A stretch of 44,540 nt of DNA from Escherichia phage vB_EcoS-phiEc4, in the sequence record MZ576218; one strand, given 5' to 3'. Below are positions 7,985-34,262 of the stretch, piece after piece. Every line of letters starts with the position of its first letter. Positions within the stretch are counted from its first letter, which is position 1. The notes beneath the pieces are model-generated. The model ran no database searches, was not told where the DNA came from, and was given only the letters and a program-made list of their open reading frames with translations. Position numbers and translations under genes: made by a program.

Positions 7985-8020
7985 TACAGCGGCCCTTCGG
8001 GGCCGTAATAAGGAAAGGTC

Positions 8021-8200
8021 ATGGCAGATAATTATGTAATCCGCGAAAAGTACACCCACGTTGATATTGTAGACGGTCAGGTGATGCCTGTTCGCGGTGT
8101 GGTAGAAGCGGATGAACTGGTTGCGACTCAACCGGACAACGAAGAAGCGCACAACAACGGCGGTGGTGCTAAGCGTCGTCGCCGTAAATCAGAGGAATAA
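8021..8200 (+). CDS. 59-aa protein with basic C-terminus (GAKRRRRKSEE)
   Basis: not in ORF track; RBS AGGAAAGG 3 nt upstream of ATG; fills gap between decoration and adaptor genes. Confidence 0.4.
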   Translation: MADNYVIREKYTHVDIVDGQVMPVRGVVEADELVATQPDNEEAHNNGGGAKRRRRKSEE

Positions 8201-8203
8201 TTT

Positions 8204-8716
8204 ATGCCGCTAATCGTGGAAGACGGGTCGATAGTACCTAACGCCGACAGTTACATTAGTCTGGCTGACGCCCGCGCGTTAGCGGCTAATTACGGTCTTG
8301 AGTTACCCTCAGACGATACTGCCGCAGAGGTGGCACTGCGCAACGGCGCTACTTATGTCGGGCTTGCAGAACCGCAGATGTGCGGCCGCCGTGTGTCCGC
8401 CGAGCAGTCCCTGGCGTACCCACGTACGGGAACAACACTAAACGGCTTCACCGTAGCTGATAATGTTATCCCACCGCAGTTAATCCGGGCGCAGGTAATC
8501 GCCGCTGTTACGTATGGAGCGGGCACTGATGTTCGGGCTAACTCCGATGGACGTTCCGTGCAGACCGAGCGTGTAGAGGGTGCGGTAACAGTTACCTACT
8601 TCAACAACGGCAACAGCGGGGCCACAACCGCGATTACCGCCGCTGACGACGCCTTACGCCCGTTACTGTGTGGTGGTCTTAACAACGGCTTCTCATTTAA
8701 TGTGTACCGGGGTTAA
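8204..8716 (+). CDS. head-tail adaptor / connector protein
   Basis: 170 aa, first gene of neck block after capsid; assignment by position. Confidence 0.45.
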   Translation: MPLIVEDGSIVPNADSYISLADARALAANYGLELPSDDTAAEVALRNGATYVGLAEPQMCGRRVSAEQSLAYPRTGTTLNGFTVADNVIPPQLIRAQVIAAVTYGAGTDVRANSDGRSVQTERVEGAVTVTYFNNGNSGATTAITAADDALRPLLCGGLNNGFSFNVYRG

Positions 8717-8718
8717 AA

Positions 8719-9333
8719 ATGGCGAAGACTAAATCAGAGATGTTTACTCTTATCGGCGCAAACCTCCCCGATAACACTACCGGGCTTATTACCCCAGCAG
8801 CGTTGCGCGAGGTAATGACACAGATGGCTGACTCACCTATTTACGCCACTCCAGGTGTTAAAGAGGTTGAAGTTCTCCGTGCCGCGTCTACGGTAACCCA
8901 AGCGCCTACCGCGGTAGATACGGCATTGCAGTTAACTTTCGGTGCAGCTCAGGGTAGTGCATCCGACCCGGTAATGATTAATGCTGCGGGGCTGGTTACA
9001 TTCAACACCGCCGGTAACTACGCCGTTCGCATCAAGTTACAGGCAGGCCGCACAGGTGCCAGCGGAACGTCAATCCTGCTATCACGTATTTTAGTAAACG
9101 GCGCTCAGTACGGCTCACCCGCCGCCACGAAACTGGTAAGCGCGGACACCACAATCCCGATTGAATCTCGCGTTGTTATTAACCCAACAGCAGGCCAGAC
9201 TTTTGCCGTTCAGATTATGCGGGATAGCGCCGGAAGCAACTTCGGCGGCGTATACCCGCAAGCGGCTACCGTAACCGCATGGGGTACAGCACCATCCGCG
9301 CTACTGGTTATCTCGAGACTGGAGGCCGCCTGA
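8719..9333 (+). CDS. structural protein of head-tail joining region
   Basis: 204 aa, Ala/Thr/Gly-rich; position between adaptor and head-closure genes. Confidence 0.4.
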   Translation: MAKTKSEMFTLIGANLPDNTTGLITPAALREVMTQMADSPIYATPGVKEVEVLRAASTVTQAPTAVDTALQLTFGAAQGSASDPVMINAAGLVTFNTAGNYAVRIKLQAGRTGASGTSILLSRILVNGAQYGSPAATKLVSADTTIPIESRVVINPTAGQTFAVQIMRDSAGSNFGGVYPQAATVTAWGTAPSALLVISRLEAA

Positions 9334-11666: not shown

Positions 11667-11671
11667 AACTA

Positions 11672-11697
11672 AGGCCCCTTTCGGGGCCTTTTTCTTA
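11672..11697. terminator. bidirectional rho-independent terminator
   Basis: AGGCCCC-TTTC-GGGGCCT followed by TTTTTCTT; between convergent major tail gene (+) and kinase gene (-). Confidence 0.75.
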
Positions 11698-12249
11698 CAA
11701 ACCTAATTTTAAAGCAATGTCTATAACGTTCGATTTAACGTCACCCGGTATGATGTAGGTGTCGTAATCTTTTACACCACTAACATCATACAGATAGCCA
11801 CGGCTATCGCCGATGAACGTATAGCCGTCACGATGGAGGCGAACGATTTGCACGTCATGCCCTGCGGCGACGATAGGGGCAACTTCACTGGCGAATCCAC
11901 CGTCGGACACTACAAAAACTTCGTCGCCGTCAGGCAAGTTTTCAGCAAGATACTTACCGAAATAATCATCGCCGAATACCGGTTTAATGAATTGCTCAGA
12001 AATGGCAATCATTAACTGGCGGCGGGACAACCCATTAAGAAAACCCTCGGGTTTTTCTTTCCGCGCCCGGTCGTCGTAGCCGTCGAGAAATTCGTGGTAA
12101 GCATCCTGGCCTAACGCTGCCAAAGCAATATTGAACATTGGATTCTTGAAACTGGTAGTTCCTTTCGCAAAGCCCATTTCTACCAGCGCCATAGCAAGCG
12201 TGTCTTTCCCGCAACCCGCAGGGCCATTAAGAATAATTACCTTAGCCAT
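11695..12249 (-). CDS. P-loop kinase, deoxynucleoside monophosphate kinase-like
   Basis: 184 aa; Walker A GPAGCGKDT; LSRRQLMIAISEQ segment resembles T4 gp1 dNMP kinase; start overlaps upstream stop (TAATG). Confidence 0.55.
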   Translation of the reverse strand: MAKVIILNGPAGCGKDTLAMALVEMGFAKGTTSFKNPMFNIALAALGQDAYHEFLDGYDDRARKEKPEGFLNGLSRRQLMIAISEQFIKPVFGDDYFGKYLAENLPDGDEVFVVSDGGFASEVAPIVAAGHDVQIVRLHRDGYTFIGDSRGYLYDVSGVKDYDTYIIPGDVKSNVIDIALKLGL

Positions 12250-12737
12250 TATTTATCGCTCCCGTGTGGTTTTAAGTGTGTAGAGTTCCCGTTACAGTCG
12301 TATTCGGTAACTGCGTGTGCGGTTATGCCGAGGTCACGGAAATGCTTTATTACCGCTGGAGAGTCGTCGAACGCACACAAGATTCTTTCCAGTCCGAAAG
12401 CACGCAACACCTCTTCTTTAATTACGATGTCTTTTCTGTTGTCGTGTTTGCTGCGCATGATTAGCGTGTCAAACCTAACGTTATTCTCTCGTAACCATTC
12501 GCGAGTCTCCTCCTCAGCGTCATCACTTCGCCCGGTAAGGATAATTATAGTAAGTCCGGAATGCCACAGTACGCTACACAAATGGATATTGTCGTATATC
12601 GGAGCGTCATCTTTGCAGGCCATGTTAAATGGCTTCCACGCCCACGTTTCTCCGTAGTTATCTTTTGGTAACAGGTGTAAGCGATGGGTACCGTCGGCCA
12701 ATGTCCCGTCTAAATCGAAAATTACAATATCTTTCAT
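12249..12737 (-). CDS. HAD-family phosphatase, T4 polynucleotide kinase 3'-phosphatase domain-like
   Basis: 162 aa; HAD motif I FDLDGTL, motif II LTGR, DNRKD..KEE and AFDDS segments closely parallel the T4 Pnk phosphatase domain. Confidence 0.7.
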   Translation of the reverse strand: MKDIVIFDLDGTLADGTHRLHLLPKDNYGETWAWKPFNMACKDDAPIYDNIHLCSVLWHSGLTIIILTGRSDDAEEETREWLRENNVRFDTLIMRSKHDNRKDIVIKEEVLRAFGLERILCAFDDSPAVIKHFRDLGITAHAVTEYDCNGNSTHLKPHGSDK

Positions 12738-13864
12738 CCCAGCATCTCCGGTGAAATAGTTAAACGTGCGACCTCGCCATATTCGGCGCTATAAGTAATT
12801 ACATTTGCACTGCGGCCCGACATCCATCCGCCGCGAGAGGCGTAGGCGTCTTTAGCCGCTAAGGTGCGGTGTTGCTCAACAATCATGTTACGGCTTTCTA
12901 CAATCTTCTGGTGGTGCAGATGGCCTACGTGGGCGTAGCTGTAAACACTCTCGCCGAACGCTTTACGGAACTTGGCAATCATAACCGGTTCGATAGCGTC
13001 GAATCGTGCTTTATGCCCGTGATGGAAGAACAGCGTCGTTTTGCCGTGTTGCACCATCTTGTAAACATCCGGCGACGTATCGACGAATACACGAGGCTCG
13101 TTGTCGTACAGTGTGCTGAACATCTCCGCCAGCCAAATCATCCCGGATTCGTCGTGGTTCCCCTGAACTATAAGCAAGCGAACAGTTTTATGCTTAACCA
13201 GAGCCATATCAACAACACGGCGGACCATGCGAATCATGTAGCGGACAAGTTTCTGGTAACGCGTGTCGGCGTCAAGGACATGACCACTCGCCGGTGTAAC
13301 GGCGTCAAGACTATCGAAGTGAGCTAAGTCGCCAAGAAGATTAATAACCCCCGTACCTGCATCCGGTGCTTTCTGAAACGCAGCATCAAACCAACGAGAG
13401 AATAAGTCCTCCGCGATTTTCATATCCCAGTCGTCGCCGCTCTCGTCAGCCCAGGCTAACATACCGAGATGGAAATCAGATACCGTGTAAAGATTGAGTA
13501 GTTTATCGTCACGTTTGGCTCGTGCCGGTTTAACAGGCGCAACGGGCGTAATCTCTGACTTCATGCCCTCTATTACGGCTTTCATCAATTCAACCTGACG
13601 TTCGGCATCAGCGTCGGTCTTAACCCATTGCAACTTAGTGTTGCCGAACTCGTCCACCAGGGACGACGTTCCTTTAATCTTGTAACCGTCTGGTACAAGG
13701 TGACTAACGTCGCGCCCGTGGCCTACGCCTTTCTTAGCCAGCTTCGCTTTACGGATTCGGATAACGCGGTCTGAGATTCCGTATTTACGGGCGATATCGA
13801 TATTCTTCATCCCGGCGTTCAATTCTTCCTGTAATTGCTCGTCGGTTATTTTCTTCTGGGCCAT
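12734..13864 (-). CDS. HTH domain fused to calcineurin-like metallophosphoesterase (SbcD/Mre11-like motifs)
   Basis: track ORF 12734..13969; likely start ATG 13864 with RBS GAGGAAG; motifs SDFHLG, GDLAHFD, GNHDE, HHGH, GHLHH; N-terminal basic HTH-like segment. Confidence 0.65.
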   Translation of the reverse strand: MAQKKITDEQLQEELNAGMKNIDIARKYGISDRVIRIRKAKLAKKGVGHGRDVSHLVPDGYKIKGTSSLVDEFGNTKLQWVKTDADAERQVELMKAVIEGMKSEITPVAPVKPARAKRDDKLLNLYTVSDFHLGMLAWADESGDDWDMKIAEDLFSRWFDAAFQKAPDAGTGVINLLGDLAHFDSLDAVTPASGHVLDADTRYQKLVRYMIRMVRRVVDMALVKHKTVRLLIVQGNHDESGMIWLAEMFSTLYDNEPRVFVDTSPDVYKMVQHGKTTLFFHHGHKARFDAIEPVMIAKFRKAFGESVYSYAHVGHLHHQKIVESRNMIVEQHRTLAAKDAYASRGGWMSGRSANVITYSAEYGEVARLTISPEMLG

Positions 13865-13902: not shown

Positions 13903-14094
13903 CTACTTCTCTTTCACGTTCGAGTTGCAAGCCCAGATTAAAATGAATACCCACGGCAACAGAATCCACCCGAGAAATAAGTTAGCCATGAATATCGCCA
14001 GCTTTGCTTTATGGTTACGCATATGTGCCACCAAAAACGGGATAAAATAAACGGCTACAAAAATAATTAAGAAGAACATAGTGATACCGGTCAT
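13903..14094 (-). CDS. superinfection immunity (Imm-like) small membrane protein
   Basis: track ORF 13903..14121; likely start ATG 14094 with RBS AGGAG; pattern IPFLVAHMRNH...NLFLGWILLPW...LIWA resembles the small superinfection-immunity family as recalled. Confidence 0.6.
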   Translation of the reverse strand: MTGITMFFLIIFVAVYFIPFLVAHMRNHKAKLAIFMANLFLGWILLPWVFILIWACNSNVKEK

Positions 14095-14136
14095 AACATA
14101 ACTCCTGATTTGAGATAACATCGTTGGTGTAAGTGA

Positions 14137-14272: not shown

Positions 14273-14689
14273 ATGAAACTTTCTGATTTTTATTACGAAG
14301 CGGAAGCCGAAAAGGGCGCACGTATGCCGATACCGCTAAAAGACGGTACTGATTCCGGGGAATGGCTTAATGTTGTTTCTCCTGAGGCGGACGTTGCCGT
14401 TAAGGCTATGCGCGCGTTCACCCTTGCATACCGGGCAGTATTAGGGAAATTAAAACCGCTTCGTGATAAGTGCGAAGAGATGAAAGATTTCTCTGAATAC
14501 AACCTGAAGATGGAAGACGCGGCGACGGACCTTAACCGTCAGTTAGCGATTGAATTGGTTAACGGGTGGAGCCTTGACGACGAATTCAATAAAGAGAATC
14601 TGAACACACTCCTGACGCAATATAAACGACTCGCGGAACTTGTTGTTGTGTTTCATAACGAACAACTGCACCAGCTACAGGAAAAGTAG
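14273..14689 (+). CDS. tail assembly chaperone (G-like)
   Basis: 138 aa immediately upstream of tape measure gene; followed by -1 frame ORF lacking its own RBS. Confidence 0.55.
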   Translation: MKLSDFYYEAEAEKGARMPIPLKDGTDSGEWLNVVSPEADVAVKAMRAFTLAYRAVLGKLKPLRDKCEEMKDFSEYNLKMEDAATDLNRQLAIELVNGWSLDDEFNKENLNTLLTQYKRLAELVVVFHNEQLHQLQEK

Positions 14690-14694
14690 ACGCG

Positions 14695-15054
14695 TTGCTC
14701 CAGTTCGCCCGTTGGAACTTCATAACCCGCCACAAACGGCGGGAATTTGACAGTATCGCCGATGGGCATAAAGCCGCGCTAATTGCTATGGGGGTTATGC
14801 AAGACGCGCCGGATGCAACGCAGGCCGCTGGGCCGGAATGCCCCCCTGAGCTACTAACCACATTTGAGAAGTACAGGGAAATTAAATTCACCCGCCGAGT
14901 GGACGACGACGGCATCAAGATGTACCCGCGCGAGCAATTACGATGGTCAGATTTAGTGGCGTACAGCACCGTTTCAGGCCAGAATATAGGGATGTTCGAA
15001 TCCGACATCATCATGAGCTTAGACGCTATTTTCGAGGGTAGAAACGATGGCTGA
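14695..15054 (+). CDS. tail assembly chaperone T-domain, probably expressed as G-T fusion by -1 frameshift
   Basis: -1 frame relative to 14273..14689; frame open from 14659; near-slippery GGAAAAG at 14680..14686; no ATG or SD at its 5' end. Confidence 0.45.
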   Translation: MLQFARWNFITRHKRREFDSIADGHKAALIAMGVMQDAPDATQAAGPECPPELLTTFEKYREIKFTRRVDDDGIKMYPREQLRWSDLVAYSTVSGQNIGMFESDIIMSLDAIFEGRNDG

Positions 15055-24270: not shown

Positions 24271-24407
24271 TACTCTTCTGATAACTTCTCCAGCACAAAC
24301 GCCAGTTGCGCATTAGCGGCGTCTCTTTGTTGCCGTAGTCGCAGAACCTCTTCTTCGAGTTCCTTGATACGTTTTTGCAATGCCGGAATTGGGGCTATGA
24401 TGTTCAT
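24270..24407 (-). CDS. 45-aa coiled-coil protein
   Basis: not in ORF track; MNIIAPIPALQKRIKELEEEVLRLRQQRDAANAQLAFVLEKLSEE; ATGA overlap with stop of Toprim gene. Confidence 0.4.
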   Translation of the reverse strand: MNIIAPIPALQKRIKELEEEVLRLRQQRDAANAQLAFVLEKLSEE

Positions 24408-24919
24408 CTGGTAAATTTCCTCGCAAGATACGTTATTTCTTCTTCACAAAGTTCATCAAGGTCGTTAGATACAAATCCTCTGGTGAATGTTTTGCTGAAC
24501 TTTAATCCAGCTTTATCATTGTCGCCAGCGCACACCCAGTCATACGGCAAAAGTGACATTTGCTGCCGTAAGTCAGCTGGTATGTTCGACCCCAATGCGC
24601 TAACTGCATTAAACCCGCAATTCATCAAAGCAACAGCTTTAAATATGCTTTCGGTAACAAATACCACCCCGCTACTTGGCAAATACTCAAGTCCCCATAA
24701 ACACGGCCTTGTTGTTCGGGTAAAGTACCGCGCGTCTTTAGGGTTTTTACAGTTCTTTTCAGCATGCGGCTTGTAATGCTGGTATCCTCGTAGCCTGCCG
24801 TCAAAACCCCACAAGTAGAATGTAGCAACGCCAGGGGCTAAGACTACCTGGAGACGGTCTGCGTCAAAACCTCGTGACAGCAGATGCGCCTTAAGTAGAA
24901 ACTCTTCGAAATCCATCAT
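24404..24919 (-). CDS. Toprim-domain protein (DnaG-like catalytic core)
   Basis: 171 aa; conserved Glu in VTESIF and DxD in CAGDNDKAG in Toprim order. Confidence 0.55.
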   Translation of the reverse strand: MMDFEEFLLKAHLLSRGFDADRLQVVLAPGVATFYLWGFDGRLRGYQHYKPHAEKNCKNPKDARYFTRTTRPCLWGLEYLPSSGVVFVTESIFKAVALMNCGFNAVSALGSNIPADLRQQMSLLPYDWVCAGDNDKAGLKFSKTFTRGFVSNDLDELCEEEITYLARKFTR

Positions 24920-26340
24920 TTCTTACTCCTACGTTTCATATAATTAAGTAGTTCATCCTGTACAGACCTTTTCTCGTCTGTACGCGCCGCAACAACCTCG
25001 TCCAGAGTGTCTTTAGCAACGATGTGATAAAGGAACACCGGGCGCTCGTGACCCGCCTGTTTCTGGCGGACTGGGCCTATGCGCTCAACAACCTGCAAAT
25101 AGTGCTCAAGGTTCCAGCCTTGCGAGATGAACGCCAGATGATGACCCCCGTCCTGTAAATTCAAACCATGCCCGGCTGACGCAGGATGCACGCATAAAAT
25201 CTCGATTTCCCCACGGTTCCACGCTTCCATCTGCTTGTTCCCCCTAGCGCCTTTGGCGAACGCCTGTGCCTGTGGGAATCGCTTAAGGATACGCTCCAGT
25301 TCGTGTTTAAACTGATAGGCTACCAGCAACGGCGCACCCTGCAACTCCTCAACAATCGACTCGAGCGCATCCAGTTTCGTGTCGTGCACTTTCTCCCAGT
25401 CTTTGGTCGCTTCGCCGTCTGGCCCGGATACATATACAGCACCAGATGCAATCTGCAAGCACTTTGAGGTCTTCGCCGCAGCGTTAGCCGCTTCAACTTC
25501 CCCGCTCTCCAGTTCTGCGAATAACTTCTCCTCCATATCTATGTACGCCTGACGCGCTTTCTTCGGCAGGTCTATTTCCACCGGTACGATAACAGGCGCT
25601 TCACAACCAAACCACTCGGCAGGGTCTATGGTCAGGCTGATGTCTTTCATCTTCTGATGAATCTCATTATCCGCACCCGGTCGTGCATGATACTCGCGGG
25701 CCATAGCCGATTTACCTTTCTGTACCGAGTTAAACCAGCGGTCGGTGAATGCTGTGTACGAAGAGCCGAGGCGCTCGCCAGCGTCGATAAACCAGTTCTG
25801 ACCCCACAAGTCTTTGAGGCCGTTTGGTGACGGTGTGCCTGTCAGGTTGATGAAACGCTTAACCTTTCCGAACGCAACCTTGCTGAGCGCCTTTGCCCGC
25901 TTGCTACCACCCGAACGGCTGCGGAACGATTTAAGCTTCGTGCTTTCATCGGCAACGATAACCGTAAAAGGCCAGTCGTCTTTGCCGTAGTAGTCAATTA
26001 GCCACTCGATAACTTCGTAGTTAGTGCACACCACGTTAGCATCTGACTCCAGCGCTGCGATGCGGCGCTTCTCCGAACCAGTTGCATCTACGACACGCAG
26101 ACAAGGGAATTGCCATTTCTCTTGTTCAGCAGGCCACGTACCGGACGCAACACGTAACGGGGCAAGGATTAACACGCGGTCCTCTTCCGTAAGCTGCCCG
26201 TTGCGGAACAGGCGGTTGAGCACCCACATAGTGGAGGAGGTTTTACCTCCCCCCATTCCGCACCAGATATTACAGCGCGGGTGTTGCAGCATGAACGAGG
26301 TCATGAGCTTCTGGTACTCGCGTCTTTGAAACTTACTCAT
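24916..26340 (-). CDS. SNF2-family helicase
   Basis: 474 aa; Walker A GMGGGKT, DExx box DESTK, motif III LTGTPSPN. Confidence 0.75.
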   Translation of the reverse strand: MSKFQRREYQKLMTSFMLQHPRCNIWCGMGGGKTSSTMWVLNRLFRNGQLTEEDRVLILAPLRVASGTWPAEQEKWQFPCLRVVDATGSEKRRIAALESDANVVCTNYEVIEWLIDYYGKDDWPFTVIVADESTKLKSFRSRSGGSKRAKALSKVAFGKVKRFINLTGTPSPNGLKDLWGQNWFIDAGERLGSSYTAFTDRWFNSVQKGKSAMAREYHARPGADNEIHQKMKDISLTIDPAEWFGCEAPVIVPVEIDLPKKARQAYIDMEEKLFAELESGEVEAANAAAKTSKCLQIASGAVYVSGPDGEATKDWEKVHDTKLDALESIVEELQGAPLLVAYQFKHELERILKRFPQAQAFAKGARGNKQMEAWNRGEIEILCVHPASAGHGLNLQDGGHHLAFISQGWNLEHYLQVVERIGPVRQKQAGHERPVFLYHIVAKDTLDEVVAARTDEKRSVQDELLNYMKRRSKK

Positions 26341-27277
26341 TTACCGCCCCCATGAATGCCTTTATAAATTCAGCGGCTACTTGCGGGACGATGGCATTGC
26401 CGTAACCGCGCAATCGTCCCACTCTGGCGGGTATCCCATTAGCCAGCGGGAATGCGCCGGGTTCAACTGGCCGGAATTTTCCATCCCGGCAGCCGAGCCA
26501 GTCAGCATCTGACCAGAAGCCGTGATGCGAATTGGTTGCGTTATCGCCGCTGCTTGTGCCACGTCTTGAGGTCCACCCTTCCTCTGAATCTCCGATAGTG
26601 CCCCCTCTAGTGTTCTCACGTTCTTTTCCCCGTCCGCACTGCGAGGAGTAGGCCAATTCGTCAGTTTTAGCCCCTGTTCCGTTGAGTAGTCCAGCCTGTC
26701 GAATGTTCTGTCCTTCCCGTCCTTGCGGATAACAGTCTCTCCGCTCCCTTTGTAATCGTTCGCGGTCGGTGTCGGCCAATTCGTGCGCACCAAAGAAGAG
26801 TCGTTCTCTTTTGTGCGGAGCGCCGACGCTACAAGCTGGGAGTACGGCAAACCCGACGGCGTAGTCTTCTCCTTCCAGGTGAGTTTGTAAATCGCACATC
26901 CACGATTTTGCAATTGCTGGCGCAACCTGTTCCCCAAAGAGGACTGGAGGGTGGCACTCGCTGATGAGGTCAAGGAATACGGGCGCGAGGTGTCTCGGGT
27001 CGAACTGTCCGAGTTGCTTTCCTGCCGTGCTAAACGGTTGGCAAGGCGGGCTTCCCGTCCAGAGAGGCGCATCTTCCGGAACTCCCGCAAGTCTGAGCGC
27101 GAGAGGCCAGCCGCCGATACCAGCGAAAAAATGACACTGGGTGAATCCGTCGAGGTCTTCTGGCTTAACTTCAGTAATGCTTCTTTCATCTACAACTCCA
27201 AAAGGTATGTGACCCTGTTTTATTAATTCACGCAGCCACGCGGCTGCGCCTTTATCCCATTCGTTGTAATAGTTCAT
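26333..27277 (-). CDS. DNA (cytosine-5) methyltransferase
   Basis: 314 aa; motif I FAGIGG, motif IV SPPCQPFS, motif VIII KRERLFF, motif X GNAIVPQVA; atypical low-complexity variable region. Confidence 0.7.
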   Translation of the reverse strand: MNYYNEWDKGAAAWLRELIKQGHIPFGVVDERSITEVKPEDLDGFTQCHFFAGIGGWPLALRLAGVPEDAPLWTGSPPCQPFSTAGKQLGQFDPRHLAPVFLDLISECHPPVLFGEQVAPAIAKSWMCDLQTHLEGEDYAVGFAVLPACSVGAPHKRERLFFGAHELADTDRERLQRERRDCYPQGREGQNIRQAGLLNGTGAKTDELAYSSQCGRGKERENTRGGTIGDSEEGWTSRRGTSSGDNATNSHHGFWSDADWLGCRDGKFRPVEPGAFPLANGIPARVGRLRGYGNAIVPQVAAEFIKAFMGAVNE

Positions 27278-27465
27278 TTTGCCACCAGAACTAACTCTTT
27301 ACGCCCGAACGCCGTAACGTTACCGGTTACATCTTCGATAACCAGTTTACCGTTCGACTCGACGTACACCGTATCAACGGCAACAGGCCGACGGGTCTTA
27401 ACGTTGAAAATCATGTCGCCAGGTACGATGTCACGTGCTGGTTTGCGGTCATATTCGTGTTTCAT
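27274..27465 (-). CDS. hypothetical protein
   Basis: 63 aa ORF, ATGA-coupled to methyltransferase gene; preceded by P_B promoter. Confidence 0.5.
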   Translation of the reverse strand: MKHEYDRKPARDIVPGDMIFNVKTRRPVAVDTVYVESNGKLVIEDVTGNVTAFGRKELVLVAK

Positions 27466-27495
27466 TTCTCAATTACTTATATTGTTGGTGTAGGA

Positions 27496-27783
27496 CTAAC
27501 TATAATAGTTCGCTATTAGGGCGTCAACCTGTTTAAACGAACCAACGACAAAAACATTAGCACCACGCTTACGCATCCGCTCGTGCTCCCGTAACTGGTG
27601 TGGATCCGGCTTCGTGCTTTCGTCTTTCTTTATCTCGACGAACCAGATGACGCCGCCGGGGAGAATTACCAGCAGGTCAGGGGCGCCGGAACGTCCTTCG
27701 TAGGAAAGTTTACGAACGAGGCCACCAATGGCCTCGAATCGGTCTTTTGCGTATTTCTGTATTTTGCCCTCAGGCGTACTCAT
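27496..27783 (-). CDS. VRR-NUC domain nuclease
   Basis: track ORF 27496..27819; likely start ATG 27783 with RBS GAGGGG; motif GAPDLLVILPGGVIWFVEIKK. Confidence 0.7.
   Translation of the reverse strand: MSTPEGKIQKYAKDRFEAIGGLVRKLSYEGRSGAPDLLVILPGGVIWFVEIKKDESTKPDPHQLREHERMRKRGANVFVVGSFKQVDALIANYYS
27499..27527 (-). promoter_or_regulatory. promoter P_B (TTGACG-17-TATAGT) with AATAG-TTCG-CTATT palindrome in spacer
   Basis: reverse complement reads TTGACGCCCTAATAGCGAACTATTATAGT; same layout as 31259..31287 and 34170..34198. Confidence 0.55.
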
Positions 27784-27868
27784 CCACACACCCCTCACGT
27801 TTCGTATGCGCAATACCACAGCGCGGACAGATCCGGCGGTCTTCTTCGTAGAACCAGTAAATTTTCAT
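27770..27868 (-). CDS. 32-aa Cys-rich micro-protein (MKIYWFYEEDRRICPRCGIAHTKREGCVDEYA)
   Basis: not in track; ATGA overlap with upstream micro-ORF; CxxC..H..C spacing. Confidence 0.25.
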   Translation of the reverse strand: MKIYWFYEEDRRICPRCGIAHTKREGCVDEYA

Positions 27869-27996
27869 TCCAGCACCCACAGATAAATTGTTACTAACAT
27901 ACCTAATACGGCAACCATCATGCCGTATTGACCCTCGTGACAGTAGACACCGGCGGCGAATCCCGCCAGTACCGCAATAATCAGTTTACTTGGCAT
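27865..27996 (-). CDS. 43-aa hydrophobic micro-protein (MPSKLIIAVLAGFAAGVYCHEGQYGMMVAVLGMLVTIYLWVLE)
   Basis: not in track; start overlaps 3' end of polymerase gene. Confidence 0.3.
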   Translation of the reverse strand: MPSKLIIAVLAGFAAGVYCHEGQYGMMVAVLGMLVTIYLWVLE

Positions 27997-30250
27997 ATCG
28001 CTTCATCTCCGCACCTTCAGCTACAAGAGGGAACCCCTCCGCCCATTCCGGCAATTCGCACATCAACCGCTCAAGCTCTGCTACATTGTATTCCGGTGAA
28101 TCTGGTGTCTCGCAGATAATCTCATCGTGTACGTGAAGTACAATCGGGTAGCCGTTTGCTTCTACGTTCAGCAGGGCATTAGCCAGCAAATCACGGCACA
28201 ATGCCTGAGTGCAGTTTTCCACCAGTTTACCGGAGTAGGTGTACTGGAAGCCCCACTGCCTGGTTAACTGATTTTCACCCTGATACTTGATGCGCACGTT
28301 AGTAGAAACTTTTCCGTCTTCGTCTGTCTCTTTTGACACGCTCAACCCGACGCCCGGGTATGACATAACGCGACCTGACGGCAACGTCATGCGCAACCAC
28401 CAACCAGCGACTTTGTTGCCGTTGTTGTCTGTTTCTACGTTGCGAGAAAACTTAACCCCGCGAGGGCCAGCGGTGAACTCTTTACCTGGATTGCGGATAG
28501 CTGCCATAGCGGCGTCTTCAATATCCCGCCAGAACGCTACTGTTTCCGGGTGGGACTCCCGCCACATACGCTTGATAGCGTCGCAGGTACGCCACACTTT
28601 CTTATCAAGAATATATGATGGTCGGTCATCTTTTTCACCGGGCCGCGGAGGTCGCTTTGCTTCCTGAATACGCGCCCATTCATAGCCGCGTGCAGTAGCG
28701 GCCCATATATGGTCCGGGAAAGTACCGTCCATTGTTTTAGCCATATCAACCAGGTTTAAGCCGAGGTTCTTAGCAAACTGAACGAAAGCACCGACACCAC
28801 CAGCATAGCCAAGTCCCAATTCACATGCTTTACCTATCTGGCGTAGGTCACTACGGCTTTCGAGAATGTAATCAGGGTCCATGCCGAACATCTTACCCGC
28901 GGTTACACAGTAAATATCCAATCCCGCACGGAAGGTATCGAGAGCGGTTTCTTCTCCCGCCAGCCATGCCAACCCGCGACCTTCAACGTTAGAGTAATCA
29001 GCTACGACAAACTTACGCCCGGCTTCCGGTATGATGCAGCTACGCACCGTCGATGCCGTTAGCTTGGCTACATCGAAACGGCGATGCGCGCGGCCTTTAA
29101 ACAACAGGTCGATTCCGTAGGACAATGGGTGTGTTACTCTCCACCAATCCTTCTCTGACATCCAGTCATAACGTACTTTCTTCTTTTTATTCTTCGGGTC
29201 GTCGTGATAGTACCCACGCGCGAGGTTCTGCGGCTGGAAGCCTTTACCTGCAAACCGTAACGTACGCTTAGCTCCACCATATTGTATGCAACCGCGACGG
29301 CGGTCGTCAGAAGAGCGGCCTAACAGCAGCGGGTTATATTTCGTGGACGCTGTTGACGCGGCCCCGAGGCGCATTTCGATAATCGTGCGGGCGTCGTCAG
29401 GTAAATCATCATCGGCCAGCAGGTCATTCAGCGTCGACTTCTGTGCGTTGTGTATGCGGTGTGCGGGGGCCAGTTCACGTAGAATAGGCAGAAAGTCCTT
29501 ACCGGTAAGCGAGCCGCCGTATTTACGTTGAGCTTCTTCCTGTAACTGTGCCTTGTGCTTCTCTACGGCTTCAATCGCGGCTTCCGCCAGTGCGACGTCA
29601 ACCTTAAATCCGCGGTCGTTGATTAACTGGTCAAGTTCCAGTACACGGTCTTCGAACTCGGAGTTACCCCAACGCGGCAGCTTATGGAAGACTTCACGCA
29701 TCGCAGTGATGTCGCTCACGGCGTACCTGATGAACATCGCCCACTCGTCAGGGTGAGTTTCTGCGGTGTAGCGGCGGATTTTGTAGTTCTTCGGCGTCGG
29801 TTTAGAGAAACGCTTAATCAGAGCCTTGCCGCGTTTATCTTTCGCGTTGTCTGCAGACACGCCCAGCACTTCGCACAGCGCATCAAGAGAACCCGGCAGC
29901 GCGTGACGGAACGCCCAAATCATAGTATCAATGGTGTTACTTACCGGAATATCAAAGCCCCAGCAGTGTTTCATGATTAGGCGATCGAAAAGTCCACCGT
30001 TGTGCCACACAATCTTGATGCGGCTGTTGGGCTTAACAAGGCGGCGCAGTGCGCGGTGCAAATCCCCCGGCATGTCGCTGCCGTCGGTGCAATCCCATAC
30101 CTGCACAGGCTCTTCGTCAAAAGCATAGGTACAGATAAGCACTTCGGTTGACGGGTGTTCAGCGTAAGCGTAGGAACCTACTTTCTTCAAATCGATGTCG
30201 CTGTAGGTTTCAAAGTCTAAGTAAAGCAATGTGTTCATAGTCTGTACCAC
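27986..30250 (-). CDS. DNA polymerase, family A with 3'-5' exonuclease domain
   Basis: 754 aa; Exo I LYLDFETYS; motif B-like RQIGKACELGLGYAGG; motif C VHDEI. Confidence 0.85.
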   Translation of the reverse strand: MVQTMNTLLYLDFETYSDIDLKKVGSYAYAEHPSTEVLICTYAFDEEPVQVWDCTDGSDMPGDLHRALRRLVKPNSRIKIVWHNGGLFDRLIMKHCWGFDIPVSNTIDTMIWAFRHALPGSLDALCEVLGVSADNAKDKRGKALIKRFSKPTPKNYKIRRYTAETHPDEWAMFIRYAVSDITAMREVFHKLPRWGNSEFEDRVLELDQLINDRGFKVDVALAEAAIEAVEKHKAQLQEEAQRKYGGSLTGKDFLPILRELAPAHRIHNAQKSTLNDLLADDDLPDDARTIIEMRLGAASTASTKYNPLLLGRSSDDRRRGCIQYGGAKRTLRFAGKGFQPQNLARGYYHDDPKNKKKKVRYDWMSEKDWWRVTHPLSYGIDLLFKGRAHRRFDVAKLTASTVRSCIIPEAGRKFVVADYSNVEGRGLAWLAGEETALDTFRAGLDIYCVTAGKMFGMDPDYILESRSDLRQIGKACELGLGYAGGVGAFVQFAKNLGLNLVDMAKTMDGTFPDHIWAATARGYEWARIQEAKRPPRPGEKDDRPSYILDKKVWRTCDAIKRMWRESHPETVAFWRDIEDAAMAAIRNPGKEFTAGPRGVKFSRNVETDNNGNKVAGWWLRMTLPSGRVMSYPGVGLSVSKETDEDGKVSTNVRIKYQGENQLTRQWGFQYTYSGKLVENCTQALCRDLLANALLNVEANGYPIVLHVHDEIICETPDSPEYNVAELERLMCELPEWAEGFPLVAEGAEMKRYAK

Positions 30251-30513
30251 GTCTGATAGTCTGCTTCTGTGAGATGGTCGTCGCGATCTTGTTTCTTGTT
30301 TTTACCGCGTTCTATGATTTCTGCCCAAGTCCGGTCTGGGTCTGTGTCTTCTATTAAATGTTTATGCTCCTCGCATGCATAGTGTTTATACCAGTCTCGT
30401 ACACCGTAAGCTGGAGGGTATTTAGTCATCCAAATTGCTCTAACTTTTTTACCTTCTGCCTTACAAAATTTGCAGTATGTGATGCGTCTGTATCTCTTAA
30501 GTTCCGCTGCCAT
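30235..30513 (-). CDS. hypothetical Cys/His-rich protein
   Basis: 92 aa with CKFCK...C..H spacing. Confidence 0.5.
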   Translation of the reverse strand: MAAELKRYRRITYCKFCKAEGKKVRAIWMTKYPPAYGVRDWYKHYACEEHKHLIEDTDPDRTWAEIIERGKNKKQDRDDHLTEADYQTWYRL

Positions 30514-30525
30514 TATTTTCGACCC

Positions 30526-30553
30526 TTAGTAAAAAGGCCCAATGAAGGGCCTT
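30526..30553 (-). terminator. hairpin AAGGCCC-TTCATT-GGGCCTT followed by TTTTTACT (minus strand)
   Basis: read on reverse complement downstream of 30573..31205. Confidence 0.5.
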
Positions 30554-30572
30554 AGTTAAACAGATTCAGATA

Positions 30573-31205
30573 TTAACCACGGCGACGACGTTCGCGGCGC
30601 GGTGCTTCATCTTCTTCGTCGTCTTCCAGGTCGTCGGTGCTCGCTACTACACTGGAGCCGCCGAAGCGTTTACCTTCGCCCATATACTTGATGCCGAGGA
30701 TGGTAGCGCACAGGTTTTTCCAATCTTTGTGCCACCATAATTCTACAGATACGTTTGCGATACATCCGCTATATACCTGCTCGCCTTCTATTTCTTTCCC
30801 GTCGATGTTGAAATCAGGCTCGGTTTGTTTTTCACCTTTAGCCGATGTCATAATCACCGGTTGGCGGTTGTTTGTAGCGCGGAAATACAGACCTTCTTCA
30901 AAATCCTCAATCGGATTATCTCGCATTGCCAGGTCACGGACGCAGCATTTGTCTGCGTGGTGGTCTACACCGTAGTTGGCCTTCATCCATTTCTCGGCAG
31001 CAGCGGCCCCGATTGCATCTGTTACAACTTCCAACGCGGTGTCGTAAAGCGCATCAATTTGAGGATGGTCAGGCTGCATAAGAACAGTAACCTGATACTT
31101 ACCCTTAATCAGTTTACCGGTTTTCTTGTCCTCAGAGTCGGCGGCACGTTCAAATACGTTAACCCAAGCAGTGTTTACTTTACGCAGATTCAGTTTAATA
31201 CCCAT
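30573..31205 (-). CDS. hypothetical protein, possible ssDNA-binding protein
   Basis: 210 aa with acidic tail DDLEDDEEDE; assignment tentative. Confidence 0.35.
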   Translation of the reverse strand: MGIKLNLRKVNTAWVNVFERAADSEDKKTGKLIKGKYQVTVLMQPDHPQIDALYDTALEVVTDAIGAAAAEKWMKANYGVDHHADKCCVRDLAMRDNPIEDFEEGLYFRATNNRQPVIMTSAKGEKQTEPDFNIDGKEIEGEQVYSGCIANVSVELWWHKDWKNLCATILGIKYMGEGKRFGGSSVVASTDDLEDDEEDEAPRRERRRRG

Positions 31206-31258
31206 CGTGATTTCTCGCTTTTAAGTTTACTCCGGGAGCTGCCCGGCCAGTGATTAGA

Positions 31259-31287
31259 ACTATAATAGCTAACTATTCATGTGTCAA
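31259..31287 (-). promoter_or_regulatory. promoter P_B (TTGACA-17-TATAGT) with AATAG-CTAA-CTATT palindrome in spacer
   Basis: reverse complement reads TTGACACATGAATAGTTAGCTATTATAGT. Confidence 0.6.
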
Positions 31288-31476
31288 ATAAAATTTTGCA
31301 ATAGGGATTATGTTCTCGAAATTAAGCATATTGGCCGGTTCGAACTCATCCTCTACAGGGTAGTATCGCATCATGGTACCGTTCAAGAACGTGAACGATT
31401 CCGAGTGTAGATACCCATCCCAGCGCCATACCATCAAAAAATCTTTATCAGTCGGCATTTCATTTACTTGAATCAT
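31273..31476 (-). CDS. hypothetical protein
   Basis: track ORF 31273..31506; likely start ATG 31476 with RBS GAGGAGGA and ATGA overlap. Confidence 0.45.
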   Translation of the reverse strand: MIQVNEMPTDKDFLMVWRWDGYLHSESFTFLNGTMMRYYPVEDEFEPANMLNFENIIPIAKFYLTHE

Positions 31477-32714
31477 TCTAAATCCTCCTCTGTAACTTGA
31501 TTCCACTCAGGACGTTTGTCATCCGCCGTTGCGACGCATGGCGCACCGGGCTTACGGGTAATGAAGTCTTTCAGTTCTTCTTCCGGTACAATTTTAACCG
31601 CTTCGGTCGGTGTCATAAGAACTACCTTTTGCAGCATAGTACCGTACTTCTCGAATACTGCATCGGTATCTTTCCACGCACGATTACCCGGGCGTCCTTC
31701 AACCAGTTTATACCCCGGCACTTTCTTACCGGAATGTAACGCAGCAGCCATAGCTTTCTCAACCTTGTCGATGTGCTGGCGCAACAACGGCAACTTCTCA
31801 TACTCAGCTACGAGTTGCTCTGGCGTAAGCTCAAGTGCAAAGTCGTCCTCCAGTTCTTCAGCCAGTACAGAGTTAACGGTTTTTGTACGCGCGGCGCATT
31901 GTTCAGAGAACCGGCACCACTGGCAACCATCTACCGACGGCTTAAAGTCTGACGCTTTCAGGTCCTTCTTGCCGCGGAAATAAGCATCAAGCGCTAACAG
32001 CGCGCGTTTCTGTGCGAACTTAGCGAACAGTTCCAGTCCTTCAACCGAGATGTCCCACTCTGTCGCACCCCCAGCGTAAGGCTGGAAGATGACCAGACGA
32101 ACGGTTGTTATGCTATAACGTCTCTTGAGTCGACGATAAACACCGAGAGCGTAAAGCATAAGCTGCTTGTTTTCTTTCGCTTCGACGCGATGCCGCCCGG
32201 TTTTCAGGTCGCCGATAATGAGCATGTGCTCGTCGGTGTTTGCCAGTTCCTGGACAGCAACGAGGTCAGCGGTTCCGAACGTCTCAACGCCTTCATACCC
32301 CGGATGCAATACCTCAGTAAGATTAACACGCATTTCCAGCTTGGCGTAAGTCGCTACGTCTATAATCGCTTTGCAGTAGTCGGTGTACTTGCGCACCTGC
32401 TCAATCATGTCCGCCGTAATCAGTACCGCGCCTTTCATCGGGCTGATTAGTGCCTTAATCTGGCCTTTGCCTTCATCCAGCACGTAAGCACCGACTTCAC
32501 GCTCTAACGGCAGCGCAGTTCCGCGAATATAAGCGTTGAGATGGACCTCAGCTATGGTGTGCATTGCCGTGCCTAATACAGCGGCTTTACCTGACGTGTT
32601 AGGGATATCTTTTTCACAGGCCAGTGATGCCGCGCAACTTAGCCACTTTTTAGCCCCTGACGGCGACAGTAAGGCATGTACATCGTTATTGCCGCCGCGT
32701 TCTTTAAGAATCAT
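31473..32714 (-). CDS. PD-(D/E)xK exonuclease, Cas4/RecB-like
   Basis: 413 aa; nuclease motifs GTADLVAV and IIGDLKTGR; C-terminal CQWCRFSEQC cysteine cluster. Confidence 0.7.
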   Translation of the reverse strand: MILKERGGNNDVHALLSPSGAKKWLSCAASLACEKDIPNTSGKAAVLGTAMHTIAEVHLNAYIRGTALPLEREVGAYVLDEGKGQIKALISPMKGAVLITADMIEQVRKYTDYCKAIIDVATYAKLEMRVNLTEVLHPGYEGVETFGTADLVAVQELANTDEHMLIIGDLKTGRHRVEAKENKQLMLYALGVYRRLKRRYSITTVRLVIFQPYAGGATEWDISVEGLELFAKFAQKRALLALDAYFRGKKDLKASDFKPSVDGCQWCRFSEQCAARTKTVNSVLAEELEDDFALELTPEQLVAEYEKLPLLRQHIDKVEKAMAAALHSGKKVPGYKLVEGRPGNRAWKDTDAVFEKYGTMLQKVVLMTPTEAVKIVPEEELKDFITRKPGAPCVATADDKRPEWNQVTEEDLE

Positions 32715-33058
32715 CGTAAACTCTCCAAATACAAGTTTAATGCCTGTAACTGTTCTTCTGTAGGAATGAAAGAATCATCGCGATGTAAGTCGCTTAACTG
32801 TTGCAACATTCCTGCGAACTGACGTCTTGCGTCAACAGCGTCCATGTGATGCTTTTCACTTTTATATATTAATGTTTTCGGGTAATCCTCAAGCCTGCCA
32901 GACGATTTATTCACGCGGAGCGCACGAGCTTCATGCACAATGTGAATGTACTTTTTGCCGTTTTGTAACACAGTAGCTACGCCGCTGCTCTTTCTGCGGT
33001 CGCCGACTGTGTAAACCTTGTCGCCACTACGCAGATTAAGCCACCATTTATCGGTCAT
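32711..33058 (-). CDS. hypothetical protein
   Basis: track ORF 32711..33073; likely start ATG 33058 (ATGA overlap). Confidence 0.45.
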   Translation of the reverse strand: MTDKWWLNLRSGDKVYTVGDRRKSSGVATVLQNGKKYIHIVHEARALRVNKSSGRLEDYPKTLIYKSEKHHMDAVDARRQFAGMLQQLSDLHRDDSFIPTEEQLQALNLYLESLR

Positions 33059-33327
33059 ACCCTGTTCTCCCACTGGTCAATTAAATGTCGTGTCTTATGG
33101 TCGCAGTGCATGGTCCACCCATACATCGACTCGAAGACATAAAAGTCAGGCTTGGCGAAAGTTGTGCGCTTAATCTGTGACACGTGACGGCCTATATCTT
33201 TAGGCCGTGGTACTTTTCCTAAGTACGCCATCTCTTCCATCTGGTGCGCACCGGACGGAGCACGCAATAGCCATAGCGCCTCTGTGTTATCCCGCCTGTC
33301 GACGGCTCGGTAGAGTTGGTAAATCAT
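33055..33327 (-). CDS. hypothetical protein
   Basis: 90 aa ORF with RBS GAGGG. Confidence 0.45.
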   Translation of the reverse strand: MIYQLYRAVDRRDNTEALWLLRAPSGAHQMEEMAYLGKVPRPKDIGRHVSQIKRTTFAKPDFYVFESMYGWTMHCDHKTRHLIDQWENRV

Positions 33328-33370
33328 AATTCCGACCCTCAGTTAAAGCGGCCCGAAGGCCGCGAGATAG

Positions 33371-33889: not shown

Positions 33890-33913
33890 TATTTATTCTC
33901 CTGTTTATTTGGG

Positions 33914-34141: not shown

Positions 34142-34169
34142 ATCCGCCCCTCTCGTTTGGTATGGGCTA

Positions 34170-34198
34170 ACTATAATAGCGAACTATTCACATGTCAA
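34170..34198 (-). promoter_or_regulatory. promoter P_B (TTGACA-17-TATAGT) with AATAG-CGAA-CTATT palindrome in spacer
   Basis: reverse complement reads TTGACATGTGAATAGTTCGCTATTATAGT; divergent from the HTH gene promoter. Confidence 0.6.
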
Positions 34199-34222
34199 TG
34201 GGCTTTTCTAAAATAATTAATA

Positions 34223-34231: not shown

Positions 34232-34262
34232 TCACACATCAACTGACTAAGGAGTAATTGAC

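Follow-up and report, generated by a model that had tools for sequence, protein, structure and literature searches.

A helix-turn-helix-linked metallophosphoesterase of Escherichia phage vB_EcoS-phiEc4, a member of the widespread phrog_704 family, as a possible Rad50-independent DNA end-processing enzyme

The genome of Escherichia phage vB_EcoS-phiEc4 (sequence record MZ576218), a Kagunavirus, harbors a gene that a sequence-only reading described as the fusion of a helix-turn-helix (HTH)-like domain to an SbcD/Mre11-type metallophosphoesterase (MPE) having no SbcC/Rad50 partner. This raises the question of whether the encoded protein, referred to as HTH-MPE, actually belongs to the SbcD/Mre11 type, and of which role it might play on its own. 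The window analysed, i.e., the whole stretch of 44,540 nucleotides, covers nearly all of the ~45 kb phage genome, and contains the gene at the following position:

12734..13864, minus strand: ORF of HTH-MPE, 376 amino acids plus stop codon, phrog_704 member (ORF list, phrog_704 match)

The ORF was rightly regarded as a real gene: it starts with an ATG at 13864, with an AGGAA Shine-Dalgarno sequence 7 nt upstream, and its product matches the phrog_704 profile over the full length (E = 6e-168, residues 3-375 versus profile positions 1-389 of 390). An alternative GTG start, which would extend the ORF to 13969 and make it overlap with the upstream Imm gene, is unlikely. A 100% identical protein is encoded by annotated genes of phages vB_EcoS-phiEc3 and vB_Eco_K-01, under the GenBank labels "calcineurin-like phosphoesterase" or "DNA repair exonuclease", and phrog_704 homologues occur in 2038 of 50,697 phage records. 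The novelty implied by the sequence-only reading was overstated, since the same protein had already been deposited and annotated and the family is present in about 4% of the sequenced phages; the description is correct, but it concerns a gene that had been catalogued before, does not amount to a discovery, and is of modest novelty.

The catalytic portion of the protein is organized as follows:

12737..13510, minus strand: binuclear MPE catalytic domain, residues 119-376, ending at the MPE core
13463..13480, minus strand: MPE motif I, SDFHLG, residues 129-134 (D130, H132)
13313..13333, minus strand: MPE motif II, GDLAHFD, residues 178-184 (D179; H182 aligns with the His of Mre11 GDLLH)
13148..13162, minus strand: MPE motif III, GNHDE, residues 235-239 (N236, catalytic H237)
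13013..13024, minus strand: MPE motif IV, HHGH, residues 281-284 (H282)
12911..12925, minus strand: MPE motif V, GHLHH, residues 314-318 (H315, H317)
12827..12865, minus strand: family-specific C-terminal signature TLAAKDAYASRGG (conservation, alignments, hhalign)

All five motifs were found in the order originally claimed, and, when the entire window was translated in six frames, a loose MPE motif pattern matched this ORF alone. In the alignment of 94 homologues (31-50% identity), D130, H132, G178, D179, N236, H237, H282, G314, and H317 are invariant, and H182, D184, D238, G283, and H315 are conserved in at least 90% of the sequences; in other words, conservation across the family (invariance or at least 90%) extends to the seven metal ligands, to the catalytic His of GNH, and to the His of motif II that is reminiscent of Mre11. 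Such conservation reflects selection on the motifs and not a chance pattern. The AF2 model (pLDDT 93.4) exhibits the beta-sandwich fold of MPEs. The Pfam gathering scores of PF00149 (Metallophos) and PF12850 (Metallophos_2, the best Pfam match) were missed (18.8 vs. 21.5 bits and 21.7 vs. 27 bits, respectively); the family is divergent, so that its membership in the MPE superfamily rests on motifs and fold.

Every MPE contains these five motifs, which are not diagnostic of SbcD. When the family profile was searched against all PDB sequences, the sole MPE matches were Mre11 and the Pseudomonas putida "nuclease MPE"; the likeness to the latter, which belongs to the Lhr-MPE operon, is much weaker than that to PolD DP1 or Mre11, and, unlike HTH-MPE, it is devoid of an HTH and paired with an Lhr helicase. 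The hhalign comparison of the family profile with T4 gp47 gave 78% over 186 columns, from motif I to past motif V, and paired the TLAAKDAYASRGG signature (H-x-T-L-A-A-x-D-A-Y-A-x-R-G-G in the phrog_704 consensus) with WTLTAGDENDPRG of gp47. The corresponding values were 19.5% for T5 A1, 2.8% for E. coli SbcD, which could not be aligned to the profile, 0.7% for lambda phosphatase, and 0.2% for LpxH. HTH-MPE shares with Mre11, SbcD, and T4 gp47 the full set of ligands and the catalytic His of GNHD, and the His of Thermotoga maritima Mre11 GDLLH aligns with that of its motif II; unlike them, it has an additional N-terminal HTH and lacks a capping region, Rad50-binding helices, and a Rad50/SbcC gene. 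Concerning the capping domain, no Pfam match to SbcD_C or Mre11_DNA_bind was obtained, the protein stopping at residue 376 with the last MPE-core strands. Also, no curated NCBIfam SbcD/Mre11 model was matched, the NCBIfam scan giving a weak FixJ HTH alone. HTH-MPE is not a true SbcD/Mre11, and the attribution to this type is only partly supported: the MPE domain is intact and nuclease-like, but the capping domain, the Rad50-binding helices, and a match to curated models are missing.

In Campylobacter phage F357, a phrog_704 member coexists with the canonical gp46/gp47 pair, and therefore the HTH-MPE family is a separate lineage. The possibility that it represents the gp47 orthologue of T4-like Campylobacter phages was discarded, since F357 possesses separate gp46 and gp47 (BLASTP 1.6e-40 and 2e-27 to T4, respectively). 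As to the missing partner, the original claim was borne out: no SbcC/Rad50-like protein was found among the window ORFs or in the annotated near-identical genomes, nor is a Rad50/SbcC gene adjacent to phrog_704 members at the loci examined in other phages. The large non-structural ORFs of the window encode a primase-helicase (AAA_25), an SNF2 helicase, PolA, a DUF2800/PD-(D/E)XK nuclease, an Enc34-type SSB, a C5 methylase, and the terminase, and the remaining large ones encode virion proteins, according to the annotation of near-identical GenBank records.

The region preceding the catalytic domain can be divided into three parts:

13730..13843, minus strand: tri-helical HTH of the LuxR/GerE / sigma-70 region 4 type, residues 8-45
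13685..13729, minus strand: flexible, low-confidence linker, residues 46-60, ending in a conserved VPDG (pLDDT 54-71; alignments)
13553..13684, minus strand: connector, formed by a beta-hairpin (residues 61-85) and a long helix (residues 87-104) (AF2, conservation)

The first 60 residues, embedding IDIARKYGISDRVIRIRKAKL (residues 22-42), are basic (pI 9.9 vs. 6.15 for the catalytic domain), and three helices (8-16, 21-28, and 32-44) are confidently modelled by AF2. The tri-helical fold and the sequence pattern are common to LuxR/GerE and sigma-70 region 4 proteins, with a similarity recognizable at the family level; the proposal that this segment is HTH-like is borne out by sequence pattern and model. 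The protein's own Pfam HTH score (17.8) is below the gathering threshold (23.5); Sigma70_r4_2 is strongly matched by the N-termini of phrog_704 homologues. According to HMM scoring, the HTH module is retained in 130 of the 142 full-length cluster representatives; since 33 of these representatives had served to build the HMM, the count is in part circular. Differently from GerE, the fourth (dimerisation) helix is missing, and the HTH is joined to an enzyme rather than to a receiver or ligand-binding domain. In most phrog_704 homologues, the linker reads G-x-x-P-E-H-D-M-T-H-x-V-P-D-G. The connector hairpin (pLDDT 93-94) contains the nearly invariant G74 and W80, and the connector is kept in a Campylobacter phage homologue without the HTH, which can be aligned from residue 65. 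The idea that an HTH gene near the genome end might encode the small terminase subunit was rejected, since the reference genome has its own TerS.

It can be proposed, with roughly even chances, that HTH-MPE is a Rad50-independent, HTH-tethered nucleic-acid phosphodiesterase for DNA end processing, lying in the structural neighbourhood of Mre11, SbcD, and PolD DP1. According to this proposal, the HTH would hold the enzyme on duplex DNA, replacing the DNA clamping that Rad50 and the capping domain provide for Mre11, and the Mn2+/Mg2+-dependent active site might trim or nick DNA ends, flaps, or single-stranded regions, thus performing an accessory DNA end processing in phage recombination, replication, or repair. 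Against a tether stands the fact that sigma region 4/LuxR HTHs normally mediate sequence-specific transcription control and not substrate tethering. PolD DP1, a small subunit and archaeal 3'-5' proofreading exonuclease, differs from HTH-MPE, as do the eukaryotic B-subunits, in several respects: the sequence identity is only 12%; an OB-fold precedes the phosphodiesterase domain, whereas residues 61-104 of HTH-MPE form one hairpin and one helix; HTH-MPE has no DP2-type partner; and the phage polymerase belongs to family A.

The genomic context of the family gene in different phage backbones, where it sits among recombination and repair genes, would support an end-processing role. In lambdoid viral contigs, the nin region contains it immediately before Q, in the company of NinB, NinG, a RecA-dependent nuclease, and a FEN-like exonuclease; in the T1-like phage tunus, it is preceded by genes for a helicase, VRR-NUC, and Dam; in F357, it adjoins a DNA ligase and a Holliday-junction resolvase. 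However, the position of the gene varies, often adjoining lysis genes or Q, and guilt by association is therefore weak. An N4-like roseophage carries the family gene beside thymidylate synthase and dCMP deaminase.

The location next to Q bears on two other readings. In lambda, the gene order is ninG-ninH-ninI-Q, and the lambdoid phrog_704 genes occupy the same slot as NinH and NinI, i.e., immediately upstream of Q in the contigs examined; moreover, the HTH protein NinH can be aligned to the family HTH (hhalign 88.9%, 27 columns). HTH-MPE might thus be a protein Ser/Thr/Tyr phosphatase functionally similar to NinI. However, NinI is a phosphatase of the PPP family without a specific relation to the MPE domain of HTH-MPE (hhalign 0.7% with the family profile), whose motifs are DxHxG, GDxxH, and GNHD instead of the PPP motifs GDxHG, GDxVDRG, and GNHE, and no PPP-type fold was recognized. 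Mutated metal ligands and membership in a Ser/Thr phosphatase clade had been indicated by the sequence-only reading as arguments against itself; in the alignment of the 94 homologues, the catalytic domain has neither mutated ligands nor PPP motifs. A NinI-like phosphatase is disfavoured and extremely improbable, and a NinH-NinI fusion was rejected as well: slot and HTH fit, but the MPE is unrelated to NinI, leaving a positional analogy only.

According to the second reading, the protein could be an HTH-linked hydrolase of small molecules (a cyclic nucleotide, a (p)ppGpp-like alarmone, NAD, or Ap4A), the HTH acting as a transcription factor or contacting RNA polymerase; this is very unlikely, and equally so is its possible involvement in counter-defence or in a late-gene switch. 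Metallophos_2 as the best Pfam match, the affinity of homologue N-termini for Sigma70_r4_2, and the frequent location of the gene just before Q or the lysis cassette are in agreement with such an activity, but nucleases are the best matches by structure and profile, the protein lacks a conserved ligand-sensing domain, and the gene coexists with Q without replacing it. No PADLOC model was matched, which argues against this reading and led us to discard HTH-MPE as a known anti-phage defence component.

Downstream of the gene, the minus-strand cassette continues with the following elements:

12249..12737, minus strand: PNKP-type HAD 3'-phosphatase, translationally coupled to HTH-MPE through an ATGA overlap
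11695..12249, minus strand: P-loop kinase of phrog_139 (annotated as dNMP kinase), coupled through a TAATG overlap
11671..11690, bidirectional: intrinsic terminator that ends the minus-strand cassette and, on the plus strand, the major tail gene

The HAD protein matches Pfam HAD_PNKP (3.3e-20) and, in the PDB, Pnkp1 (4e-6) and T4 PNK (2e-4). The PDB search with the kinase yielded P-loop matches and nothing further, the dNMP-kinase label being a database name only. In a promoter scan around the cassette, sites were no more frequent than expected by chance. The order HTH-MPE, HAD-PNKP, kinase recurs in the T1-like Klebsiella phage Roth71 with ~42% identity; however, a PNKP companion is present at just 3 of 56 diverse loci, the pair with the kinase is missing in 53 of 56, and roughly half of the Kagunavirus loci that are near-identical also lack the linkage with PNKP and kinase. 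An obligatory MPE-HAD-kinase module was excluded on these grounds, and the PNKP-type phosphatase is a lineage-specific companion rather than a universal part of the family.

Two different roles can be envisaged for these companions. If HTH-MPE is an end-processing nuclease, the 3'-phosphatase and the kinase, co-translated with it in Kagunavirus and T1-like Weberviruses, could heal the ends that it makes. Alternatively, HTH-MPE itself might heal ends, working as a 2',3'-cyclic phosphodiesterase or a 3'-phosphomonoesterase, similar to the MPE domain of bacterial Pnkp, that together with PNKP and kinase repairs RNA (tRNA) or DNA ends cut by defence systems. The translational coupling in phiEc4, the conserved gene order in the Klebsiella phage, the similarity of the HAD protein to Pnkp1 and to the T4 PNK phosphatase domain, and the ligase adjoining the family gene in F357 are consistent with this alternative. 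It is nevertheless distinctly unlikely: the companions are missing at most family loci, the HAD protein already provides a 3'-phosphatase, no RNA ligase was found among the window ORFs or in the near-identical annotation, and the HTH suggests duplex DNA rather than tRNA. Pnkp-type MPEs are lambda-phosphatase-like, and lambda phosphatase has no relationship to the family closer than the superfamily level.

Returning to a nuclease acting without Rad50, the best functional precedent, by analogy, for a partner-less phage MPE acting on DNA is T5 A1. It is reported to resemble double-strand break repair nucleases and polymerase proofreading subunits, and to be both required and sufficient for the degradation of host DNA (bioRxiv 10.64898/2026.04.02.716235). 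Like HTH-MPE, A1 is a stand-alone phage MPE without a Rad50 partner, but it is 556 amino acids long, has another architecture, and matches phrog_1745 alone; in addition, the DNA-binding protein A2 of T5 is encoded by a separate gene, whereas HTH-MPE has a fused HTH. Direct homology was rejected, BLASTP being not significant and the hhalign match being limited to 20 columns at motif III.

This precedent raises the possibility that HTH-MPE is a host-chromosome DNase, i.e., the counterpart of A1 in T1-like, Jersey-like, and Kagunavirus phages, with kinase and phosphatase processing the released mononucleotides. An unmapped function of phage T1 in host DNA degradation, gene 2.5, speaks for this possibility, as do the sufficiency of A1 for host DNA loss, the phrog_139 assignment ("dNMP kinase") of the neighbouring kinase, the nucleotide-metabolism neighbours of the roseophage copy, and the restriction of the T1-like phage Bas12 by a defence system sensing m6-dAMP from chromosome degradation. 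On the other hand, no significant sequence relation to A1 exists past motif III, the dNMP-kinase name is no more than a label, and temperate lambdoid phages often carry a family member, next to Q and with a CI-type repressor on the contig; host DNA degradation is not known for such phages. On balance, the counterpart of A1 is an unlikely identity for HTH-MPE. Its more specific form, in which the protein, as a self-targeting Mre11 relative free of Rad50, is the host DNase of these three groups and the HAD protein and the kinase recycle or destroy mononucleotides, perhaps including m6-dAMP, the danger signal to which the MPE+HAD defence systems Metis and PUA-Cal-HAD respond, is very improbable.

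Whatever its activity, phrog_704 is among the more widespread phage gene families without known function. Its hosts include T1-like, Jersey-like, Dhillonvirus, N4-like, Vibrio, and Campylobacter phages, and ~4600 clusters at 50% identity were found in metagenomes. No biochemical or genetic study of any member was retrieved from the searchable literature, and the database names are conflicting ("DNA repair exonuclease", "DNA polymerase II small subunit", "oxidoreductase", "winged HTH protein"); a single biochemical test of the family would correct thousands of annotations. If HTH-MPE is a nuclease, it would show how an Mre11-like active site dispenses with Rad50 by means of an HTH borrowed from transcription factors, and it would offer an entry point into DNA end processing, or the breakdown of host DNA, in coliphages used as models or for therapy.

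The window corresponds to the almost complete genome of a Kagunavirus coliphage (Guernseyvirinae), and the region encoding HTH-MPE, in which an N-terminal helix-turn-helix (HTH) precedes a metallophosphoesterase (MPE), shares 99.9-100% identity with Escherichia phages vB_EcoS-phiEc3, vB_Eco_K-01 and vB_Eco_K-02. Across all six reading frames of the window, a loose MPE pattern has a single match, and all the motifs quoted for the protein by the sequence-only reading were found, in the order claimed. A longer, GTG-initiated version, present in one GenBank record, is unlikely since it would run into the upstream gene. The gene belongs to a minus-strand cassette whose insertion separates the major tail gene from that for the tail assembly chaperone, and which is closed by a strong bidirectional terminator. 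The cassette and the adjacent chaperone region comprise:

11671-11690, between the convergent major tail and kinase genes: terminator, a perfect 8-bp GC-rich hairpin (AAGGCCCC-TTTC-GGGGCCTT) with T-runs on both strands
11695-12249, minus strand: P-loop kinase (phrog_139)
12249-12737, minus strand: PNKP-type HAD 3'-phosphatase (Pfam HAD_PNKP 3.3e-20; PDB Pnkp1 4e-6, T4 PNK 2e-4)
12734-13864, minus strand: HTH-MPE, 376 aa, ATG with AGGAA upstream at proper spacing
13903-14121, minus strand: T4 Imm-like superinfection immunity gene, the cassette head (Pfam Imm_superinfect 1.8e-13)
14273-15054, plus strand: tail assembly chaperone ORF, 138 aa, matching only positions 1-138 of the 259-position phrog_15027, with a 119-aa ORF directly after

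The Imm-headed cassette sits inside the tail gene block in the opposite orientation. The MPE and HAD genes overlap by 4 nt (ATGA), the HAD and kinase genes by 1 nt (TAATG), and they are translationally coupled. Phosphatase and kinase are separate polypeptides and follow each other in this order, opposite to that of T4 Pnkp. The kinase ORF is intact in the window (184 aa, 100% identical to that of vB_Eco_K-02); phiEc3 and K-01 lack about 188 bp of this region and have two small annotated hypothetical ORFs there (MZ576217.1, 11692-12059), which suggests a kinase-inactivating deletion in these isolates. As for the chaperone, such a match to part of the profile, with an ORF adjoining, typically points to a programmed frameshift yielding a longer product.

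HTH-MPE aligns with phrog_704 along its whole length (E = 6e-168). When 1.84 billion cluster representatives were searched exhaustively with HMMER, 4642 homologous clusters were retrieved at E <=1e-3 (1156 at <=1e-30), mostly of 370-420 aa and with the alignment starting near the N-terminus, while tblastn disclosed homologues in 2038 out of 50,697 phage records, including Guernseyvirinae, T1-like Drexlerviridae, Dhillonvirus, Vibrio phages, N4-like roseophages and Campylobacter myoviruses. When 94 representatives (31-50% identity) were aligned, D130, H132, G178, D179, N236, H237, H282, G314 and H317 were invariant, and H182, D184, D238, G283 and H315 were conserved in at least 90% of them. These residues comprise the complete binuclear MPE ligand set and the catalytic histidine, so that HTH-MPE is predicted, on the basis of sequence conservation, to be an active enzyme. 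The refuting outcome that the sequence-only reading named for the catalytic domain, a protein Ser/Thr phosphatase clade with mutated metal ligands, is not borne out, the ligands being invariant or at least 90% conserved. A protein phosphatase is effectively excluded.

The AlphaFold2 model built on this alignment (mean pLDDT 93.4, pTM 0.81) contains the following elements:

residues 8-16, 21-28 and 32-44: three N-terminal helices
residues 45-60: poorly defined linker
residues 61-85, then 87-104: beta-hairpin, then long helix
residues 119-376: MPE core, the protein stopping where the core stops

Structural comparison gave unlabelled figures of 15.2 for T. maritima Mre11 and 15.1 for S. aureus SbcD and, in the same list, 13.7 for LpxH and MJ0936 and about 9 for PPP protein phosphatases; the modelled fold appears closest to nucleases. 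The only MPEs recovered with the family profile from all PDB sequences were T. maritima Mre11 (E about 0.1), whose GDLLH pairs with the family GDFLH, and the P. putida 'nuclease MPE' (E 0.65). Aligning this profile to single reference sequences with hhalign gave 78% over 186 columns for T4 gp47, 19.5% over 20 columns for T5 A1, 2.8% for E. coli SbcD, 0.7% for lambda NinI and 0.2% for LpxH. On these structural and profile comparisons, the catalytic domain leans towards the nucleic-acid phosphodiesterases within the superfamily; each line is weak alone, and HTH-MPE stays under the gathering thresholds of the Pfam Metallophos models.

The SbcD/Mre11-type label proposed earlier is only partly supported: the model lacks both the capping domain and the Rad50-binding helix-loop-helix, and no match was obtained with SbcD_C and Mre11_DNA_bind (Pfam) or SbcD/Mre11 (NCBIfam). 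The lack of an SbcC/Rad50 partner was confirmed, as neither the window nor the annotated reference genomes yielded such a gene, and no SMC or Rad50-like ATPase is encoded in the replication/recombination module:

24404-36965, minus strand: Toprim-like protein, SNF2 helicase, C5 cytosine methyltransferase, PolA, Enc34-type SSB, DUF2800/PD-(D/E)XK nuclease, ProQ-C-like protein, AAA_25 primase-helicase

Campylobacter phage F357 harbors clear orthologues of T4 gp46 and gp47 (BLASTP 1.6e-40 and 2e-27) and, elsewhere, a separate, HTH-less family member adjoining a DNA ligase gene:

L097 31429-34490 and L096 31583-32536: F357 gp46, gp47 and family-member loci

The two MPE genes of this T4-like phage share the annotation 'recombination endonuclease'. 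Given this coexistence and the absence of the SbcD/Mre11 features and of a Rad50 gene, the view of HTH-MPE as an SbcD deprived of its partner was rejected: the family is a separate lineage that has a role of its own, and HTH-MPE is no genuine SbcD/Mre11.

The N-terminus of HTH-MPE itself gives marginal matches (GerE E=0.0025-0.012, FixJ 0.004-1.5). The homologues settle its prediction as an HTH, as the sequence-only reading had proposed: HTH_28 or HTH_23 was detected in 18 out of 34 N-terminal segments, Sigma70_r4_2 in 14 (best 6.9e-11) and GerE in 10 (best 1.7e-9), and the three modelled helices agree. The linker (13685-13729, minus strand) carries a motif, G-[YFW]-S/A-P-E-H-D-M-T-H-x-V-P-D-G, well conserved in two further homologue alignments (A2 and the closer A3) and degenerate in the window's phage (GVGHGRDVSHLVPDG); the two His and two Asp in this motif might touch the active site or a partner.

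What recurs in family neighbourhoods, where the early and late regions meet, is DNA recombination, repair and nucleotide metabolism. In lambdoid contigs, the gene belongs to the nin region, in the company of NinB, NinG, DUF3310, dGTP diphosphohydrolase, a RecA-dependent nuclease or a FEN-like exonuclease, and is immediately upstream of antiterminator Q in eight loci. In the T1-like phage tunus, it lies between helicase, VRR-NUC and Dam genes and the holin; in an N4-like phage, its neighbours are thymidylate synthase and dCMP deaminase; a Dhillonvirus has it as the final gene of the genome, behind the lysis genes. The slot upstream of Q occupied by the family gene in lambdoid phages (8001-9137 in locus L009) hosts ninH and ninI in lambda (3041-3890 in L091), coding for an HTH protein and an MPE-fold protein phosphatase, respectively. 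The ninI and family MPE lineages are unrelated, so that the family gene could be a functional replacement of ninH/ninI.

Among diverse viral loci, 53 out of 56 lack the HAD-kinase pair, as do roughly half of the near-identical Kagunavirus loci; the pair is therefore an optional companion. It is present in some and absent from other Kagunavirus genomes that are otherwise near-identical, and turns up again behind the MPE gene of T1-like Klebsiella phages; in one of them, Roth71, the MPE-HAD-kinase order, followed by lysis genes, is retained with an MPE only about 42% identical.

The intact binuclear site, the conserved HTH, a fold nearest to that of nucleases and the absence of Rad50 underpin the proposal, to which we assign roughly an even chance, of an HTH-tethered, Rad50-free DNA end-processing enzyme for phage recombination, replication or repair. 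The HTH would anchor the enzyme on duplex DNA, a task for which Mre11 relies on its capping domain and the Rad50 clamp; ends, flaps or single strands would be worked on by the active site during these processes, and the PNKP-type phosphatase and kinase, where present, could heal the resulting termini. HTH-MPE might otherwise be an end-healing 2',3'-phosphoesterase, a hydrolase of small nucleotides linked to a regulatory HTH or, by analogy with T5 A1, a host-chromosome DNase. T5 A1, an MPE without a partner, is reported to be both required and sufficient for the breakdown of host DNA (bioRxiv 10.64898/2026.04.02.716235); however, the family is common in temperate phages, which argues against this reading. 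The calcineurin-like MPE and HAD phosphatase pair (12249-13864, minus strand) has the same domain composition as Metis and PUA-Cal-HAD, bacterial defence systems sensing m6-dAMP from degraded host DNA (bioRxiv 10.1101/2025.11.05.686725, 10.64898/2026.01.15.699771); PADLOC returned no matches, and the likeness may be a coincidence.

The exact protein is already deposited and annotated, the family is already a PHROG, and the earlier description of the sequence was correct; an HTH joined to a compact MPE, with no Rad50, represents a variation on an enzyme kind already known, not a novel one. Family names are in conflict ('DNA repair exonuclease', 'calcineurin-like phosphoesterase', 'DNA polymerase II small subunit', 'oxidoreductase', 'winged HTH protein'), and no experimental study of the family was found in the literature. 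The significance of the finding lies in the abundance of this uncharacterised family, and not in anything peculiar to the window's locus.
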